Origin: an uncultured Candidatus Saccharibacteria bacterium
Lineage (GTDB): Bacteria; Patescibacteriota; JABMPQ01; JAGQLO01
DNA: 25,849 bases
NCBI GenBank assembly: GCA_964371425.1
Contig: CAYJMK010000001.1
Span: 2,454-28,302 of the forward strand
Direction: 5' to 3'
Position numbers and translations under genes: made by a program. Positions 1,168-10,191 of the stretch are shown here, one piece after another. The notes below the pieces were generated by a model that was not told where the DNA came from, ran no database searches, and saw only the letters and a program-made list of their open reading frames with translations. The stretch's first letter is position 1; every line of letters starts with the position of its first letter.

Positions 1168-1204
1168 AACATCTCTTCCATGGTGGAAGAGATGTTTTCG
1201 TTTT
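1168..1204. terminator. Intrinsic terminator between convergent genes (clear U-tract on + strand)
   Basis: Perfect 13-bp inverted repeat aacatctcttcca-tgg-tggaagagatgtt (1168-1196) followed by ttcgtttt. Confidence 0.8.
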
Positions 1205-4200
1205 ACGGTTTTTCTGTGCGTGTAGCAGAGGAGAGGAGTGGCAGACTTCCGTCATTTTTGAGGAAGGTGAATTGCAGATGTTCCGGCAGATTTGTCACGT
1301 CTCCGGGGAAATAGAATGAGATCAGACTTTCTTTGTCTGTCTGGAGTGTTTCTGTTCCTTCACAACGCACGACCTTTCCTTGTTCTGAGAGATCACACTC
1401 CCATCCTTTGTAGTAGCCGCGTTCGTTGATGTTGCTCTTGCAGTTGTTTGCGGTCGGGAGCGCAGGTTCTTGCTGAGGCATACGGATTTCGACGCCTCGG
1501 ACGCTTTTCGCAAGGGCTGCGTCAGTGATCTTGAGTCGGATCGTTAAAGCCGTCGTCGTCCTTCCGTTTGCGGTGGTGGTTTCCTTTTTGTAGGACGTTT
1601 TGATGGGACCCTCTGTTGGTTCTGTGGCCTCTGTTGTTCGACGTGTGTCTTGAGGTTGTCTCTGATCCTCCTCTTTTTTCGTGTCTGTCGGTTCTGTCTT
1701 TTTTGGAGGCAGCGAGATTGAAAAGTCTTTCAGCATTTCAATCTCCTGAATCTCACTGAGATCTTTCGGATCAATCGTTGGGGTGCCTTTGTTGTGTTCA
1801 ATCAGGACGCGACATTCCGTAGCGTCTTCAAATGCGGGTTCGTCTGTGTCGTAACTCCATACGGGGAAGGAAAAGAGGGTGAGGTCTTCATTCTCGTGGA
1901 CTTGCAGTGACCGGAATCGTACTTGATTTGGGGCGACTTCTTCCAACATGACTTCCGGTGGATTCTTTTTAGAGAAATGCTTCGCGATTTGGTTTGGTAA
2001 ATACTTTCGATATGAAGGGCCAAGTTCGATTCGATTTGGATCTTTTTCAAAATTATCTGTTCTAACAATCGTAAAGATCACCGATTCTCCATGCCGGATG
2101 ATCGCTATCTCTGGCAAACAAACGGTGGCGGTTGGTTCATCTTCTTCATCCCATCCAAAGAGATCTTGCAACGCACCGATGAGTGTTTCTCCAAGACGAC
2201 GTGTATTTTCTCCATCTTTTGTTTTCTGCGCAGGCTCACCGTCTCCATGCAAAATATAGATGACACAATCCGCTTCTGCTTCGTGTGTTGGATCTGCGTA
2301 GGAAGCGCGAGCTCCTAGGTGGAACACTTCGTACGAATCGGAACCGAGATCATGGACCGTTTGTGATTTCACCGTGTATGTTCCCTTGCCATTTTCTTCA
2401 ACGATGACACTTGGATCTGAGTCATATCGTTCGACTTGTCCTTTGAGATACTGCTTGTAGAAGGGGACAAGATCGATCGATGTCGGTTTCTCTGTGGCTC
2501 CTGTCTTCGACACAAACGAAACCGTTGCTTCTTTGCCATGTTCGATCATGACAACGAGAGGTGAACAAACAAGTCCGTACGGTTTCTCCTCTTCTTTATC
2601 TGTTCCTTCTGCGTTTCCGCCTGTGCGAACCACATCACGATCTTCTCCGTCTGGGAGATCGGGTGGTGGACTGGTGGTACCTGCGTGTTCGATCCAAATC
2701 GTACATCCACCAAGGGCTTCACTGCCGTCTGGATAGGTAGCGATGAAATTCACTGCGTCCGTTTCGAGATGACCCGACCCGTGTATTTTATTCGAGGTGT
2801 AGGAGAATCCTGCTTCTTGTGCGTCTTTGTCGAACCACGTGGCATGCAATGTTCGGCTCTGGTTGAGGGACGCGTCGATTTCTGGGTGCTCTCCTGAAGG
2901 GTCTTCGTCTGCGAATCGGACGGTGTCGAAGTCGAGTGAACCTTTTCCTTTTTTAATCAGGAAATTGACGGTTTGTCCGTGTTTCATATGGACATTCCCA
3001 GGTTCACAGAGGATCACGTGTTGCGTATCTTCCGCTGGCTCTTTCGCGGCGTCATCTCCTGTGCCAGCTACACCCTCTTTTCCCGCTCCATCTTTTGGTC
3101 CGGTTGTATCCGTTGGTTCTTTCGGCGTTCCAGGTTCTTCTGTTATCTTCTCGCCTCCCGTCACGTCTGATTCTTTCTTGGTCCCGTCGTCTTTTGGTGG
3201 AGGAACGACACCATCTGTCCCTGTGTCAGCTACTCCTGTTTTATCCGTCCCAGCATCTTTTTTGATGGTATCCGTTGCTGTGTCTGGCGTTCGTTTTTCT
3301 GCTGCGCCTGAACCAGCGTCCACGGCTGGGGGTTCAATGCTTTCGTCTTTCTTGTCGCCGGTTTTGTCATCTGCGCCAGCTGTTTTTTTCTCCCCATCCT
3401 TCGTGTCTGTACTTGCATTTCCCGCTCCACTCTTTGTCTGAACCGTCGGCTCTTTCTCTTTTTCCGGTTTTCGTGGTGGTTCCTCCACGCTTTGCTCCTT
3501 ATGAACAATCCAAACCGTGCAATCTTTGATGATGCTGGCTTCTTTTCCGAATCGAACACGCATCGGAATTGTTTCTACGTCCACCTGTTTACTGGCATGT
3601 TTTACAAGCGAGACAACTTCGTAACTCATCGCACCTGTTTTTGTGATCGTTCTTTTCTTGTCTTTCTTTCGGAAACCGATCGGGAGTTCTGTGTCTGTGA
3701 TGGGTATCGAACCTTTTGCAGTAGAGATGGTAAAGGTTCCTTTTGTGCCATGTTGTATGACCAGCGGATCAGGTTCACAGATGGCGCCGAATGCTTTGTC
3801 CGTTGGTGTGTCTGGTGGGAGTGCATGATGCGGCCCGTAATCTTCGACTTCTCCAGATGCAAACGCTCCACTTCCGTCTTCGGCCTTTGCTTGTTCGTTC
3901 AGGCTGATCACGGCTCGATACCAGAGATCTTCCGTTTCTCCTCCAGCTCGGAATTGTAAGCCATAGAGCTGAATGTCTTGTTCTTGTTTGGAGAGATCAA
4001 TCGGGAAGTTGCGCACGACCCATTCAGGTGCACATTGATCTCTTCCTCCCCAACGACCGTTTTTATCCCAGTCGAAATAGAGGTTGAGATAGGCAGTTCC
4101 TGTGGTCTTTCCGGGATGACGTACATGGACTGCCACTTCTGCCGTACTTGTTTGACAACGCTGCAGGTCAACGGCAACACCATCGTCGTATTCATCTTTG

Positions 4201-4571
4201 TCTGTCATGTTTGGTTCCCCTTCCCGATTCACCTTTTCGCCGAGCCAAACCTCTGATGTCTTTTTTGTGCGAGCACCGTTTGAGGCTGTGGTCGTCTTAA
4301 ACGTTCCTTGCATCACGCCGACCAGATAGCCTGTTGGGCGTCCGTCTGGCGCGTCACCAAAATCGAACGGGTCTGTGAGGCTCTCCCAGGAGTTATAATC
4401 TGTCCCGAGGAAGGAAATAAATCTATTTCCGTCTCCAAAATTGTACGTATCTTCATCGTTATTCCCGGATGAGCAGCCCACACCGAGGAGTGATAGACCG
4501 CCAACAGCGATGAGAGCGAAGAAGATGCTTCTTGGTTGCATAGGGTTTTGTTTGCGCGATTCACGCGACAT
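1203..4571 (-). CDS. Large secreted, probably lipid-anchored surface protein: GEVED-type domain, 4 Cys/His repeat domains, charged low-complexity linker and C-terminal Ig-like domain
   Basis: 1122-aa ORF; N-terminal hydrophobic stretch ending LLGVG-C (alternative start MQPRS); DFGDAP at aa 70 and GEVEDY at aa 240; D/E/K/T/G/P-rich linker at about aa 358-520. Confidence 0.85.
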   Translation of the reverse strand: MSRESRKQNPMQPRSIFFALIAVGGLSLLGVGCSSGNNDEDTYNFGDGNRFISFLGTDYNSWESLTDPFDFGDAPDGRPTGYLVGVMQGTFKTTTASNGARTKKTSEVWLGEKVNREGEPNMTDKDEYDDGVAVDLQRCQTSTAEVAVHVRHPGKTTGTAYLNLYFDWDKNGRWGGRDQCAPEWVVRNFPIDLSKQEQDIQLYGLQFRAGGETEDLWYRAVISLNEQAKAEDGSGAFASGEVEDYGPHHALPPDTPTDKAFGAICEPDPLVIQHGTKGTFTISTAKGSIPITDTELPIGFRKKDKKRTITKTGAMSYEVVSLVKHASKQVDVETIPMRVRFGKEASIIKDCTVWIVHKEQSVEEPPRKPEKEKEPTVQTKSGAGNASTDTKDGEKKTAGADDKTGDKKDESIEPPAVDAGSGAAEKRTPDTATDTIKKDAGTDKTGVADTGTDGVVPPPKDDGTKKESDVTGGEKITEEPGTPKEPTDTTGPKDGAGKEGVAGTGDDAAKEPAEDTQHVILCEPGNVHMKHGQTVNFLIKKGKGSLDFDTVRFADEDPSGEHPEIDASLNQSRTLHATWFDKDAQEAGFSYTSNKIHGSGHLETDAVNFIATYPDGSEALGGCTIWIEHAGTTSPPPDLPDGEDRDVVRTGGNAEGTDKEEEKPYGLVCSPLVVMIEHGKEATVSFVSKTGATEKPTSIDLVPFYKQYLKGQVERYDSDPSVIVEENGKGTYTVKSQTVHDLGSDSYEVFHLGARASYADPTHEAEADCVIYILHGDGEPAQKTKDGENTRRLGETLIGALQDLFGWDEEDEPTATVCLPEIAIIRHGESVIFTIVRTDNFEKDPNRIELGPSYRKYLPNQIAKHFSKKNPPEVMLEEVAPNQVRFRSLQVHENEDLTLFSFPVWSYDTDEPAFEDATECRVLIEHNKGTPTIDPKDLSEIQEIEMLKDFSISLPPKKTEPTDTKKEEDQRQPQDTRRTTEATEPTEGPIKTSYKKETTTANGRTTTALTIRLKITDAALAKSVRGVEIRMPQQEPALPTANNCKSNINERGYYKGWECDLSEQGKVVRCEGTETLQTDKESLISFYFPGDVTNLPEHLQFTFLKNDGSLPLLSSATRTEKP
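1794..3779 (-). repeat. Four protein-level repeats of 93-109 aa inside the 1122-aa protein (nt 3501-3779, 2685-3008, 2247-2567, 1794-2120)
   Basis: Each copy has C-x-P-x6-H-G ... S-x3-H ... C-x5-H; alignment read by eye from the translation. Confidence 0.85.
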
Positions 4572-4604
4572 GTGTTCAGTCTACACCTGTCTCTCCTTTT
4601 TGTG

Positions 4605-4636
4605 AAAAACAACACGCCCGTTTGGGCGTGTTGTTT
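4605..4636 (-). terminator. Intrinsic terminator downstream of rpmB
   Basis: 13-bp inverted repeat aaacaacacgccc-gttt-gggcgtgttgttt (4607-4636); on the minus strand the GC stem is followed by a U5 tract. Confidence 0.8.
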
Positions 4637-4663: not shown

Positions 4664-4843
4664 CTAGGTGATTTTGCTCTTTACGTCTGATTTTAGGCAG
4701 CGAACGCAGATGCTTGTGATCTTGCCGCTGACGCGTCGGGTCTGCACATTCAAATGCTGGCGACGTTTGGTCGCAATATGGGAATGGCTTCGGGAAACCA
4801 TGTTGGCGGGTTTTCGGGCGCAGGTGTCGCAGCGGCGGGACAT
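4664..4843 (-). CDS. rpmB: 50S ribosomal protein bL28 (Zn-ribbon CxxC...CxxC form)
   Basis: MSRRCDTCARKP...VSRSHSHIATKRRQHLNVQ...ICVRCLKS is a typical L28; true ATG is at 4843 inside the longer tracked ORF. Confidence 0.93.
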   Translation of the reverse strand: MSRRCDTCARKPANMVSRSHSHIATKRRQHLNVQTRRVSGKITSICVRCLKSDVKSKIT

Positions 4844-4876
4844 AGACAGAGAATAAGTTGGCAGCAATGCCGCATC

Positions 4877-4905
4877 AAGATACGATAGCTTTCGATTCCT
4901 GGCAA
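4877..4905 (-). promoter_or_regulatory. sigma70-type promoter of rpmB
   Basis: Minus strand TTGCCA-17 nt-TATCTT; the -10 box ends about 33 nt upstream of the ATG. Confidence 0.6.
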
Positions 4906-4963
4906 GGCTCTCATTTACCTTTTCCTGTAGAAGCATCTCTTTGTCCTTCTTTTTCTTCCAGCC

Positions 4964-5593
4964 ATGATTCTTACCCTCCTGTTCTCTGATCCGCTCATTT
5001 TCTTTGCTTGGGCTGTTTCCATGATCCTGGCGATTAGTGTCCACGAATTTTCTCATGCCGCTGCCGCCACCTATTTAGGTGATCCAACCGCACGTTTGCA
5101 GGGTCGTTTCACGTTGAGCCCGTTTTCACATCTGGATCCTGTCGGCACGATTCTGATGCTGACAATTGGCTTTGGGTGGGGGAAACCAGTTCCATTCAAT
5201 CCCTACAACTTAAAGTATCCGCGCTTTGGTCCTGCGTTGGTTTCCCTTGCTGGACCTTTGTCGAACTTCTTGATGGCGACAGTCGCTGTGCTGTTCCTGA
5301 AATACGGCTATCCGCTCACGGGCCTGCCGGACACAAACGGTCTTCGACGCTTGGTAGAACTCTTGATCATGATCAATGCAGGATTGATGGTGTTCAACTT
5401 CTTCCCGTTGCCACCGCTCGACGGATCTAAGGCATTTTTTGCCATTCTTCCTGAGCGATTCGACAATGTGCGGATGTTTTTGGAGAAGTATGGGTTCTAT
5501 ATTCTGATTGGACTCATGGTTTTCTTTCCGGGACTCTTCGATGCGGTGTATGGTGGGGCTCTTTCGGTGATTGATGCGTTCATGGCGCTGTAG
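4964..5593 (+). CDS. Site-2 protease family (M50) intramembrane zinc metalloprotease, short form without PDZ/CBS
   Basis: HEFSH (HExxH), GWGKPV, AGPLSN and NFFPLPPLDG motifs; multiple TM helices. Confidence 0.92.
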   Translation: MILTLLFSDPLIFFAWAVSMILAISVHEFSHAAAATYLGDPTARLQGRFTLSPFSHLDPVGTILMLTIGFGWGKPVPFNPYNLKYPRFGPALVSLAGPLSNFLMATVAVLFLKYGYPLTGLPDTNGLRRLVELLIMINAGLMVFNFFPLPPLDGSKAFFAILPERFDNVRMFLEKYGFYILIGLMVFFPGLFDAVYGGALSVIDAFMAL

Positions 5594-6634: not shown

Positions 6635-6699
6635 GCGTAGAGTCCGAATCTGTTTTGTGCTATCTTTTCTGTACGCATCACGCATCCAGAAATCAACAC

Positions 6700-8427
6700 A
6701 TGCCTCGTTCGTCTCCTGCCTCTGTCTCTGTATCCCATGCACTCCTTCCGCAAACGGAAGATGTCTTTGTGCAAGCCAAGGGTGGCATCTTAATCTCGCC
6801 TGATCAGCTTGCACACGTTGAGCGAGCCTACACAAAGGCGACGCGTTCGCGTGATCGTCGTGGTCCCGGTTCTCTTGCTGGACAGCGTCATGGTGTGTCA
6901 TGGCGTGTCGGTTTTATTGTATTCGGTGTTCTTTTTATGATCGGATTGGGCGGTGCTGGTTATTACATGCTTCAGCGCACCAAACCGCTTTCTTCATATG
7001 GTTCTCTCTTTCCGCAAAGCGACGACTTGGCGGTATCTTCAAAAAAACCTGAAGTCACGTTAGATGATTATTCTTCTGGTTTGAATGAGTTTTCGCGCAC
7101 CTTCCAGCAGCCTGATGCAGATCGCGATGGAGATGGTCTGACGGAAGAACAAGAAAATGAGCAAGGGACCGACCCTCTCAATGCTGATACCGATGATGAT
7201 GGATATACAGATGGGGAAGAAGTGAAGAATGGCTACCCACCGACAATACCTGCACCCATTGCAAAGTCCATGACAGTAAAAACGAATACTGATGCGGTCT
7301 ATGAACAGACAGAGACAGGACTTTCTTTTCACTATCCTGCAGGAACGAAACTTTCTGCGCCGGTGATTGTGGATGGCGAGATTGCTGAAGGAACCGACGT
7401 TCGTTTTCCTTATTTAAAAGTGTTTGAGATTTCAACGTTGACGGATCCCACCTCACCTTTTGGATTCATTCCGCTCGTATCATGGCAAGAAGCGCGTCAG
7501 CTTTTGGACGCTGTCGATGTTCCTTCGGCATCTTTGTCGACCGTGAAGGCTGTGATTCCGATTTATGGCGATTTTCTGGTTGGGGATGGTGCGAAGCCGG
7601 TGTTTTTAGAAGGTTCTGTCTTTACAGCGGCCTCGCGTGCTCGTGCGTACGAAGGGTATTACACGCTGGATGAGGGTGATCCACAGCCCACGCTTGCTCG
7701 CGTGACAACGTTTATTGAGAACGATCGTTTCTCGTATCAGTTTATTGCGTTCTTCCGTGGGAAAACGATTTCTCCCGCAGATCTTTTAGCGCAGTTACGT
7801 GCGGGTTCTGCTTCTTCGGATCTGCAAGCTGCGTATGATTTGTATGGAACGATCATTGCTTCTGTCGATATTGCGCGTGCGACAAAACCTGTTGCTCCTG
7901 TGGCGGCCACGGTTCCTACTGTTGAACCTTCTCAGCCGTCTTCTCCTTCCTCTATTCCTTCTTCTTCGGTCCTTTCAAGCGCTCAAGAGATTTTCGATAC
8001 GTTTCTTGCGAAACCAGATACAACGTCCTGGCAGAACTTTAAGCCGGCGCGTATGCCTCTTTCCTTCAAGCTTCCTCCTTCTTGGTATTACGCTGACTGT
8101 GGGGCGCGTGTTGGCCTACACTCCTCTTCGGTCAATGACTTCTGTACCGATCAAGATGCATCTCTTGTTATTGAGGTTTCGGATACAGCTCCAGATGTGA
8201 TTGCTGCACAACGTGTCTCTGTTCTCCAAATGCCTGTTTCTTCTTCTGTTGTCTTGTCTGGATTGTCCGCGCAACGTGTTCAAGGAAAAGAGCAAGGGAA
8301 TGATGTTGATTTGGTTGTGTTTGCTCGCGATCGTAAGACCTACGTTTTTTCGTTCACTGGTGCTTCTTCTGACGATCTTGCCCATGTGGATGTTTTTGCG
8401 GGACTTCTTGCCACCCTGCATTTTTAG
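6700..8427 (+). CDS. Single-pass membrane-anchored surface protein with a TSP3-like acidic Ca-binding motif and two PsbP-like segments
   Basis: ATG at 6700 preferred over the tracked 6655; TM VGFIVFGVLFMIGLGGAGYYML; DxDxDGL...GTDPLNADTDDDGYTDGEE; motifs YEQTETGLSFHYP and WQNFKPARMPLSFKLPPSW. Confidence 0.8.
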   Translation: MPRSSPASVSVSHALLPQTEDVFVQAKGGILISPDQLAHVERAYTKATRSRDRRGPGSLAGQRHGVSWRVGFIVFGVLFMIGLGGAGYYMLQRTKPLSSYGSLFPQSDDLAVSSKKPEVTLDDYSSGLNEFSRTFQQPDADRDGDGLTEEQENEQGTDPLNADTDDDGYTDGEEVKNGYPPTIPAPIAKSMTVKTNTDAVYEQTETGLSFHYPAGTKLSAPVIVDGEIAEGTDVRFPYLKVFEISTLTDPTSPFGFIPLVSWQEARQLLDAVDVPSASLSTVKAVIPIYGDFLVGDGAKPVFLEGSVFTAASRARAYEGYYTLDEGDPQPTLARVTTFIENDRFSYQFIAFFRGKTISPADLLAQLRAGSASSDLQAAYDLYGTIIASVDIARATKPVAPVAATVPTVEPSQPSSPSSIPSSSVLSSAQEIFDTFLAKPDTTSWQNFKPARMPLSFKLPPSWYYADCGARVGLHSSSVNDFCTDQDASLVIEVSDTAPDVIAAQRVSVLQMPVSSSVVLSGLSAQRVQGKEQGNDVDLVVFARDRKTYVFSFTGASSDDLAHVDVFAGLLATLHF

Positions 8428-8436
8428 AAGTGTGCG

Positions 8437-10191
8437 ATGAACGAAGATTCCAAACTGTCCCGACATACGTTCTTGTCTGGGCGTTTGGATACGCTTTCTG
8501 GATCGCTCATTGGAGCGTTGTTTACGCTCTTGACCGGTGTGCTCTTGTTTTACGCATGGCGCGCTTGGGATAATCCATCAGAATATGTGAGTACTGCTGC
8601 GCGTACGTCTATTCGTTCTGATGTTGCTTTAGCAGAAACTGTTCCACTGCCTGATCCCGCTGCGGGATGGAAAACGTATCGCAACGAGCACTACGGTTTC
8701 CAGGTGATGATTCCAGCTTATTGGGAGCCGAGTGATGCGGCTGCAACGGCTGAGGCGGTCTCCTTTGATACTCTCGAGCGGCAGGCGATCTTAACGCGTC
8801 TCCCTATTGAAGGATATATCGCTCCTGTCGAGGTTTATGTGTTTGATCGCGATGCATTGACTTTGCAAGCGACGAAAAATCCTGTTCAGTCCACACCACC
8901 GTCGTCTGCGTTTACAGAAGAACGGGATGTGATGATTGGAACGCAATTGTTTCGGCAGATGAAGTATGTCGGTTCTTCTACGCCGGGTGGTGGGCCACGT
9001 TGGTATTACATTCCTGCTGGTCAAAAGACAGAAACACCTCCGTACGCATTCTCCGCTCTTGAAGATGCTCAGTCCGTTTTATTGTCAATGTTGCGTTCGT
9101 TTGAACCGCTTTCCGCTGCAACGGCTTCTTCCACCCTTTTGAAAGCGGCATCGTTTAGGTATCTCAGGTCTTCGGTTGCAGGAGGGTCTGAAGTTGTTGG
9201 AAACGAACTGCGTGGTGCGATCGTTCGTGAGACGGTTCGTGTTCAATTACCTGTGATGAATGAAGCGATTGTTGCGGCCGATATCGATCCGACTCGTACA
9301 AAGCTTTTGTATAGCACTGCGAAGGTTGTACGTATGCGGGAGCTGGATGCTGGAACAGACTCTGTCTTGTTTTCGACGGGGACTGGAGATGCTCCCGATG
9401 GTTCTATTCCGCTGACTTCGCTGCAGTTTTCTCCAGATGGTTCTTTTGTTTCGTTTGTCTTTTCTGATCGTGTGCATACGCGGATCTCTATCATGAATCT
9501 CAAAACACATGCATTTTCTTGGAAGGATATTTCTGTTGGCCAGCCGCTGTTTTTGTGGGTTGATGCTCGACGGTTCTTGTTTGTTTCTGACGCGGGTTTG
9601 TTAACGCTTGCTGATGTTTCGCAAGATGGTATACGTTCTTTTCAATCGGATGTGCTTTCTGATGTAAAGGCGATGGTTCCCTATGCAGTCGCCTTCACAA
9701 CAGATCGGACGCGACTTGCTGTTTTAGCGGTGGGTCCTGCCGCAGCTTCAGAACAGGCATCGGCGGGGACCCGTCATGCCTTCCTGTTCTTGATCGATCC
9801 ACAGCTGGCGGACGTTGGGACGACTCGTTTACTGGAAACGGTAGATCTTGGGTTACCCATCACGGAGGCGGCTGAGCACCCTGCATCGTTTGGGTTGGCT
9901 TTCTCACCGGATGGGCAGCGTATCATTTTATCGGTTGAAGACCGTATTTGGGTTGCGGGTGCGGGTCGGCTCGAGACCTTTCGACCGGATCCATCTGTCA
10001 CACGGCAGGGACGTGTTTTAGGTACCCTGTCTTCTGGTGAATTGCTTATGAACCAATCTGCCCGTAATCCCGCGGGAGATGTGATTGGTGGACGTCTCTT
10101 ACTCCTTGACCCAGAGGGAGAGATACAACGTTTTGCTTCTTCTGTTGGTGCGAGCTCTGTTCTCCTTTCTTCTTTTGTTCTTTCACCTTGA
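8437..10191 (+). CDS. Single-pass membrane-anchored protein with a PsbP-like domain and a C-terminal TolB/WD40-like beta-propeller
   Basis: N-terminal TM; WKTYRNEHYGFQVMIPAYW motif; repeated FSPDG blade-like motifs (LQFSPDGSFV, LAFSPDGQRI). Confidence 0.75.
   Translation: MNEDSKLSRHTFLSGRLDTLSGSLIGALFTLLTGVLLFYAWRAWDNPSEYVSTAARTSIRSDVALAETVPLPDPAAGWKTYRNEHYGFQVMIPAYWEPSDAAATAEAVSFDTLERQAILTRLPIEGYIAPVEVYVFDRDALTLQATKNPVQSTPPSSAFTEERDVMIGTQLFRQMKYVGSSTPGGGPRWYYIPAGQKTETPPYAFSALEDAQSVLLSMLRSFEPLSAATASSTLLKAASFRYLRSSVAGGSEVVGNELRGAIVRETVRVQLPVMNEAIVAADIDPTRTKLLYSTAKVVRMRELDAGTDSVLFSTGTGDAPDGSIPLTSLQFSPDGSFVSFVFSDRVHTRISIMNLKTHAFSWKDISVGQPLFLWVDARRFLFVSDAGLLTLADVSQDGIRSFQSDVLSDVKAMVPYAVAFTTDRTRLAVLAVGPAAASEQASAGTRHAFLFLIDPQLADVGTTRLLETVDLGLPITEAAEHPASFGLAFSPDGQRIILSVEDRIWVAGAGRLETFRPDPSVTRQGRVLGTLSSGELLMNQSARNPAGDVIGGRLLLLDPEGEIQRFASSVGASSVLLSSFVLSP

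Follow-up and report, generated by a model that had tools for sequence, protein, structure and literature searches.

A diverged immunoglobulin-like repeat with invariant cysteines and histidines in a secreted surface protein of an uncultured Saccharibacteria bacterium: a candidate doubly braced stalk domain

Introduction

The stretch of DNA analysed here, hereafter the window, comprises 25,849 nucleotides of contig CAYJMK010000001.1 (positions 2,454 to 28,302, forward strand) from an uncultured Candidatus Saccharibacteria bacterium, and encodes on its minus strand a 1122-amino-acid (aa) secreted surface protein (P0001) containing four diverged units of ~100 residues that preserve a common set of Cys and His residues. 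The units are very probably immunoglobulin (Ig)-like stalk domains. We tentatively prefer, at somewhat under even chances for the explanation taken as a whole, that they build the stalk of an adhesin-like protein of the candidate phyla radiation (CPR/Patescibacteria), each reinforced by a disulfide between strands A and G and by a metal clamp formed by His, His and a third residue that is either His or Asp. Of the two reinforcements, the disulfide is likely, and for metal binding at the triad the balance lies at, or slightly below, an even call.

The features of the repeat protein gene, all on the minus strand and numbered from the first letter of the window, are as follows.

1203..4571, minus strand: whole gene of the 1122-aa secreted surface protein (P0001), from the open reading frame (ORF) list and its translation
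4578..4606, minus strand: promoter-like site TTCACA-17-TAGACT, by consensus match only
4473..4571, minus strand: putative N-terminal signal sequence, aa 1-33, ending in LLGVGC, read off the translation
3831..4370, minus strand: N-terminal β-sandwich head (GEVED-type), aa 68-247, from the GDAPDG motif to the GEVEDYG motif, from Pfam and the model
3492..3788, minus strand: repeat 1, aa 262-360 (C265, H274-G275, S321, H325, C351, H357), from the alignment and the model
3018..3491, minus strand: low-complexity linker, aa 361-518, rich in T/K/G/D/E/A/P, by composition count
2676..3017, minus strand: repeat 2, aa 519-632 (C522, H531-G532, S593, H597, C623, H629), from the alignment
2238..2576, minus strand: repeat 3, aa 666-778 (C669, H678-G679, S736, H740, C769, H775), from the alignment and AlphaFold model m57939d2c74b3
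1785..2129, minus strand: repeat 4, aa 815-929 (C818, H827-G828, S888, H892, C920, H926), from the alignment
1206..1649, minus strand: C-terminal domain, aa ~975-1122, from the orthologue alignment

The four repeats and the family they define

An earlier note, made from the sequence of the window alone, had described four highly diverged copies of an extracellular domain with two invariant Cys and three invariant His. All twelve motif strings that it quoted are present at the residues it gave, its coordinates 1794-3779 map exactly to aa 265-926 of the minus-strand ORF, and the MAFFT alignment of the four units gives pairwise identities of 18-30%, in line with the divergence it reported. Nine columns (C, P, H, G, S, H, C, I, H) are identical in all four units, with all 8 Cys of the four repeats occupying the two aligned Cys columns, and the three His of repeat 1 being, without exception, motif His. 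The linkers between repeats comprise 33-158 residues and are rich in T/K/D/E/P/G. Because no DNA-level repeat is found among the four units, the copies are ancient rather than recent duplications.

A profile built from the four copies, as the earlier note had proposed, was searched against 1.84 billion representative proteins and matched 19 of them at E≤1e-3, recovering a rare family. Besides the window protein, 11 of the 19 carry the full domain, and the remaining matches cover only part of the profile; P0008, P0010 and P0014 are true RibLong proteins matched through the hairpin between strands F and G, and P0009 is an InlB-B-repeat protein matched through the first strand. A second search with single-repeat orthologues added 13 further members, labelled by their sources as Candidatus Kerfeldbacteria, Levybacteria, 'Patescibacteria group' or 'cell surface protein', bringing the family to 25 proteins and 41 domain copies, together with one divergent lipoprotein. 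The domain is present in 5 of the 401 sampled genomes of the phylum, and the family is rare, patchy in its distribution and apparently restricted to CPR, no member having so far been seen elsewhere. With aa 250-940 as the query, a word-based homologue search returned only the protein itself, the low-complexity linkers having probably swamped the word index.

The alignment of the 41 copies from the 25 proteins discloses a signature of five absolutely conserved residues, the first Cys (C1), the first His and its adjoining Gly (H1-G), the second Cys (C2) and the last His (H2), each found in 41/41 copies. In addition, the Pro that follows C1 is preserved in 39/41 copies and the Ser in 36/41, and the middle position of the putative triad is His in 24 copies and Asp in the other 17, no other residue occurring there. 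The pattern is far beyond chance; the C, HG, C and H columns are invariant in every copy, in proteins found independently in public data. The spacing from C2 to H2 is always 6, with alternating core residues between them (C-x-[VI]-x-[IV]-x-H), and that from C1 to H1 is 7, 9 or 12, varying around the conserved Pro. In nearly all Asp-type copies the sequence is D-[PG]-P-x-R, and 16 of the 17 have D-P-P-x-R. The best tree of the copies carries 8 changes between His and Asp; only 4 of its branches are well supported and these force just 1 change, and, the tree being too poorly supported, we make no claim of repeated switching.

The usual architecture of the family comprises a signal sequence, a GEVED head, one to seven repeats and the C-terminal domain, single-copy orthologues being the commonest form and P0005 carrying the maximum of 7 copies. 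The closest relative, P0003, has the same four repeats, of which repeats 1, 2 and 4 pair with their counterparts in the window protein at 40-46% identity; the four-domain stalk is therefore older than the split of P0001 and P0003. In a subfamily formed by P0007, P0017 and P0020, the GEVED head and two repeats are joined by long spacers rich in Pro, a middle region that contains Cys, and He_PIG Ig domains at the C terminus; the repeat is therefore shuffled among differing surface-protein architectures. Finally, a 301-aa divergent lipoprotein from another genome, without the GEVED head, retains C-x-P-x6-HG, S-x3-D-G-P-P-R and C-x5-H.

Fold and location of the invariant residues

The AlphaFold2 model of repeat 3 (predicted local distance difference test, pLDDT, 86.9; predicted template modelling score, pTM, 0.80) and a second, independent model comprising the head and repeat 1 (23-sequence alignment; pLDDT 77 overall and ~80-94 over most of the repeat) display the same two-sheet sandwich, with the strand order A/A'-B-C-D-E-F-G as assigned by DSSP. 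In both models (i) C1 lies in strand A; (ii) the conserved Pro occupies the A/A' switch; (iii) H1 stands right after A' and the Gly makes the A'-B turn; (iv) the Ser is the final residue of strand E; (v) the His or Asp of the middle position lies within the E-F loop; and (vi) C2 is located in the middle of strand G and H2 at its end. In the repeat 1 model these residues are C265 in strand A, H274 after A', H325 in the E-F loop, C351 in mid-strand G and H357 closing strand G.

One pole of the Ig fold is common to the A'-B turn, the E-F loop and strand G at its C-terminal end, and strand A' pairs in parallel with strand G. Given this established topology and the modelled positions, the three candidate ligand positions are predicted to converge at one pole of the domain, with the Cys pair further up the same A/G interface. 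The fixed spacing between C2 and H2 and the variable spacing between C1 and H1 would fit an arrangement in which both ends of A/A' are pinned to a rigid strand G across a variable bulge. The earlier note had placed the Cys pair on the first and the last strand of a β-sandwich that brings the three His together, and both models reproduce this picture: the sandwich is Ig-like, the Cys fall in strands A and G, and the three His positions gather at the C-terminal pole. The site is not the strict 3-His site that it proposed, because the middle candidate ligand is Asp in 41% of the family copies, the two His of the strand ends being invariant. The domain is Ig-like, of I-set topology, and probably a distant relative of Rib/RibLong.

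A proposed doubly braced stalk domain

In the explanation that we tentatively prefer, the four units would be ancient copies of an unnamed Ig-like domain forming the stalk of the protein, each braced twice where its first strand (A/A') pairs with its last (G). The first brace would be a disulfide between C1 in strand A and C2 in mid-strand G. The second would be the triad comprising the His after A' (of the HG motif), the His ending strand G and the His or Asp of the E-F loop (S-x3-[HD]), which may chelate one divalent transition-metal ion (Zn, Cu or Ni) and thereby tie together the A'-B turn, the E-F loop and the domain's C-terminal end. The role of the two braces would be the thermodynamic and mechanical stiffening of a stalk that holds the epibiont to another surface, analogous to the isopeptide and ester cross-links and the Ca clamps of other adhesin stalks.

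The strict alternation of His and Asp at the middle position is the strongest argument for metal chemistry, because Asn, Tyr, Gln and Glu are equally accessible one-step changes and none is seen; an Asp at this position fits a metal triad and would also fit a non-metal polar cluster. The retention of the signature in the divergent lipoprotein that lacks the GEVED head counts in favour of the braced stalk. As regards function, the earlier note had offered a metal-dependent adhesin, a metal scavenger or a surface enzyme domain; a structural or mechanical role seems likelier than an enzyme or a scavenger, because the repeat resembles a distant RibLong/I-set-like stalk domain within a GEVED-type adhesin-like protein.

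Several points weigh against this explanation. The Asp-Arg pair of the D-[PG]-P-x-R copies would suit a network of salt bridges better than a metal site, and a site with three ligands is unusual for a purely structural metal. The adhesin role is an architectural analogy only, because no cell-wall anchor was found in the protein, and the long disordered linkers between the domains differ from the rigid tandem stalks of classical fibrillar adhesins. In addition, the gene neighbourhoods of the family are not conserved, and a locus combining copper genes with VKOR and DsbA-like genes, described below, is confined to one lineage.

Probable disulfide bonds, accessory domains and oxidative folding

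In the family proteins, each domain contains a Cys pair of its own. The head is a β-sandwich whose strands are modelled with confidence from aa ~130 onwards, its nearest folds being GH2-type β-sandwich domains (Z ~8, generic). The GEVED profile (PF20009) scores 21 bits in the window protein, below the 24.4-bit cut-off, with the exact GEVEDYG motif present, and six homologues pass the cut-off at 25-35 bits (P0003, P0005, P0012, P0015, P0016 and P0018). The Cys pair of the head, C139/C180 (i, i+41; window ~4032-4157), is present in 19/25 proteins. It is lost together in P0007, P0016 and P0033, which retain the head, the other three proteins being headless or truncated; such a joint loss is pair covariation of the kind expected of a disulfide. 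The C-terminal domain, of ~150 aa, conserved across the family and common to the single-repeat orthologues, carries a conserved W-x-C ... C-x-G Cys pair. No family match was found for aa 975-1122, the Atlas giving only weak DUF11/CARDB-like leads, and this domain could be the end by which the protein is anchored or by which it binds.

The genome of origin is of the small CPR type (886 kb in 157 contigs, 87% complete), which fits the episymbiont suggested in the earlier note, and carries the repeat at only one place, the gene of the 1122-aa protein. Two DsbA-like proteins are encoded in it, one with a CPFC and one with a CPAC motif; one of the two is membrane-anchored. The CPAC gene (L006 3..1174, G000:C85) is followed directly by that of a DoxX/MauE-like membrane protein with a C-G-C motif, a possible substitute for DsbB/VKOR. 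VKOR and DsbB themselves were not found in this genome, whose 87% complete assembly leaves their absence undemonstrated.

Across seven homologue loci no conserved neighbour partner was found. In the locus of the P0031/G295 lineage (L016; G295:C12:16.7-21.6 kb) the family gene is flanked on one side by VKOR, a cupin and two genes of DsbA-like proteins, and on the other by CsoR, a multicopper oxidase and a CopA-type ATPase. It looks like a copper and oxidative-folding island, which, for this single lineage, is suggestive of both disulfides and copper. Another homologue lies 8 kb from a ZIP transporter. Near the repeat gene in the window there are no metal genes, and most homologue loci likewise lack them.

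Alternative explanations

The main rival to the metal clamp, which we consider rather unlikely, retains the Ig-like stalk and the disulfide and assigns His, His and His or Asp to a metal-free, semi-buried network of hydrogen bonds or salt bridges that would cap the hydrophobic core at the C-terminal pole and fix the E-F loop, comparable to the conserved Arg-Asp bridge and the tyrosine corner that V/I-set Ig domains have at this pole. The two strand-end His share a face with the conserved core Ile/Val residues of C-x-[VI]-x-[IV]-x-H and are therefore likely semi-buried, the Asp of the D-type copies co-varies with the Arg four residues on, and the family has no conserved link to metal genes, all of which such a network would accommodate. 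Against it stand two His that persist in every copy at 15-30% identity and a third position limited to the two classical metal-ligand residues, a restriction tighter than packing usually imposes; two or three adjacent, uncompensated His would also make an odd core stabiliser. An improbable variant, lower still in our estimate, turns the metal from a structural into a functional one: a mononuclear site of two His plus His or Asp, with an open coordination position on an Ig scaffold, serving the capture of scarce transition metals at the surface or a metal-bridged ('zinc-zipper'-like) adhesion to a host-surface ligand or a second copy, as in the adhesin and scavenger options of the earlier note. 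Such a repeat would be a new kind of extracellular metal module. Three protein ligands would leave a position free, the domain is multiplied up to sevenfold in P0005, CPR genomes are reduced and host-dependent, and the CsoR/multicopper oxidase/CopA island and the ZIP transporter neighbour two of the homologues; however, the site, at the core's end, is probably poorly exposed, metal genes are missing from most loci and from the vicinity of the repeat gene, and single-copy orthologues predominate.

Two further readings of the invariant residues carry very little weight. That the Cys, His and Asp are catalytic, either as a hydrolase-like centre or in autocatalytic cross-linking of the ester or isopeptide type, is very improbable: these are classic catalytic residues, and ester-bond domains do use His and acidic residues beside a first-to-last-strand bond (PMC10619420), but a Thr/Gln, Lys/Asn or Glu partner is nowhere invariant in the alignment, the models put a long distance between either Cys and the His cluster, and enzymatic activity is hardly to be expected of an Ig domain of 100 aa that lacks a cleft. 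The residue sets of the known cross-links (Lys + Asn/Asp + Glu, or Thr + Gln + His/Asp, HxDxxDxxQ) are not found, the invariant columns being C, H, G, C and H, with a near-invariant Pro. Fainter still is the case for a cupredoxin-like type-1 copper site built from C2 and the His residues. It draws on weak, partial Cupredoxin_1 matches in Pfam (P0005, 32.8 bits summed over seven repeats; P0003, E 9e-4) and on the order H...C-x5-H, which loosely recalls H...C-x(2-4)-H-x(2-5)-M. Yet the matches cover only profile positions 29-56(75), that is the N-terminal strands, with no significant single stretch, and only 1/28 isolated copies matches (E 0.17). Moreover, C2 and H2, six residues apart in one confident β-strand with alternating core residues, would be ~20 Å from each other, no Met is conserved, the upstream 'ligand' is Asp in 41% of the copies, the second invariant Cys goes unexplained, and the fold matches Ig/Rib instead. 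The cupredoxin ligand set (PF13473, His...Cys-x(2-4)-His-x(2-5)-Met) is accordingly absent and this candidate is rejected on spacing, strand location and fold; the separation of ~20 Å expected between the Cys and the His of strand G likewise excludes a Cys2His2 or type-1-copper-like site.

Gene and local DNA context

The protein is a secreted, possibly lipid-anchored surface protein of the GEVED type, and a probable adhesin by analogy of architecture. Its first 33 residues may form either an ordinary signal peptide or, with a non-canonical lipobox, the signal of a lipoprotein; the sole candidate anchor is the possible lipobox VGC (aa 31-33), as read from the translation, and in the orthologues the signal peptides are of the ordinary kind.

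A promoter-like site of its own precedes the gene, downstream of the presumed rpmB terminator. The -10 box of TTCACA-17-TAGACT stops 6 nt ahead of the ATG at 4571, for which reason the mRNA of the repeat protein may have no leader or almost none; a Shine-Dalgarno sequence is not apparent. Directly upstream of the promoter-like site lies a 12-bp GC-rich hairpin with a T-run (~4605-4635, minus strand), which looks like the terminator of rpmB. The adjacent 130-aa ORF (4664-5056, minus strand) matches ribosomal protein L28 over its last 50 residues only, and would have either its true start far downstream or an unusual N-terminal extension. Two more large secreted-looking proteins, of 590 and 584 aa, are encoded nearby (6655-10191, plus strand) and form with the repeat gene a small surface-protein neighbourhood; the 590-aa protein carries a bacterial TSP3 (Ca-binding) repeat and the 584-aa protein has no family match.

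Significance

CPR/Patescibacteria live attached to other microbes, and to our knowledge the proteins that attach them are almost entirely uncharacterised. The family described here provides a compact domain of 100 residues that folds well and in which five residues are absolutely conserved. If both the disulfide and the metal clamp are real, nature would have its own version of the bi-His metal clamps engineered for protein mechanics, and a new route to force-resistant adhesin stalks would join the isopeptide, ester and Ca clamps; a functional metal site would instead make the domain a new module for metal binding at the surface; and if neither is true, it is an unnamed Ig-like domain deserving a Pfam entry. 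The domain family, its five-residue signature and the proposed bracing by disulfide and triad are undescribed in Pfam, NCBIfam or the literature searched, the fold class and the architectural logic being already known.

Comparison with known domains and adhesins

The earlier note had recognised no named family in the repeat, and indeed no Pfam or NCBIfam model covers it, NCBIfam giving no match anywhere in the 1122-aa protein. Foldseek and VIA-align, by which its call for a structural comparison was answered, return Ig-like domains only. The best structural matches are the RibLong domains 6s5w_B and 9avk_A (Z 9.4 each with repeat 1, root-mean-square deviation 2.3-2.8 Å over 86-92 residues; Z 7.5-7.7 with repeat 3), a range of Z not far above that of the generic Ig matches. 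Intimin D00-D0 (6tqd, Z 9.0) and the first Ig domain of NCAM (5aea, Z 8.9) also match, and I-set and Big_2-type domains at Z 8-9 share the sandwich topology with the A/A' strand switch at a Pro. In the AlphaFold database (AFDB) and the Atlas, the fold matches fall into Big_2, cadherin-like and Ig-like clusters, the Atlas feature search with the repeat gives only sub-threshold Ig-like leads, and the sole profile match in the PDB is the streptococcal IgI3/BIgI domain 6v3p (E 0.03). The classical Ig disulfide joins strands B and F, whereas the Cys of the repeat lie in A and G, and we know of no His cluster in I-set or Big_2-type Ig domains.

RibLong/Rib domains (PF18957, PF08428) are the stalk repeats of Gram-positive surface 'periscope' proteins, and form a tandem extracellular stalk, as here. 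The hidden Markov model (HMM) of the repeat retrieves genuine RibLong proteins through a common F-G hairpin, Y-P-D-G-[ST], which repeat 2 bears as YPDGS, and hhalign of the repeat alignment A3 with 10 RibLong copies aligns this hairpin only (26 columns, P 4e-4, probability 34%). Isolated copies (n=28) give no significant Pfam match; RibLong is the most frequent match below threshold, with 3/28 copies at E≤1, a best E of 0.0055 and 16.3 bits for P0012, short of the gathering score of 27 bits. The repeat fails the sequence tests for RibLong membership, whereas its fold superposes on that family. The RibLong copies compared lack Cys as well as any counterpart of the HG, [HD] and H positions; furthermore, RibLong domains occur as near-identical tandem copies, in contrast to the old, diverged repeats with long linkers between them described here.

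The overall architecture recalls the CshA-type GEVED fibrillar adhesins (PF20009), secreted, multidomain and repetitive proteins in which a GEVED motif is followed by a stalk-type domain. GEVED domains stand at the tips of fibrillar adhesins, with stalk domains beginning 12-17 residues past the motif (PMC10952558); in the window protein the first repeat starts ~17 residues after it. The repeated stalk domains characteristic of fibrillar adhesins are present, with 4 copies here and 1-7 in relatives, and Pfam recognises no adhesive or anchor domain in the protein that would supply the adhesive tip and the anchor; the CshA_NR2 ligand-binding domain and an LPXTG anchor were not detected in this GEVED-type repeat protein. 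Relative to the CshA-type adhesins, the type of stalk domain is new.

Reinforcement of the kind proposed has precedents. Bonds that join the first strand to the last, either isopeptide or ester, are a common reinforcement of the Ig-like domains of adhesin stalks (PMC10619420). Metal clamps stabilise stalk domains as well, as in the Ca2+ clamps of the RII extender domains of MpAFP/MhLap, and engineered bi-His Ni2+ sites raise the unfolding force (PMC5380327). The isopeptide- or ester-linked and Ca-clamped RII stalks and the repeats of the window protein would share the same bracing logic, and differ in its chemistry: Lys-Asn, Thr-Gln or Asp/Glu-Ca2+ in the known stalks, versus a proposed disulfide together with a His/His/(His|Asp) triad here.

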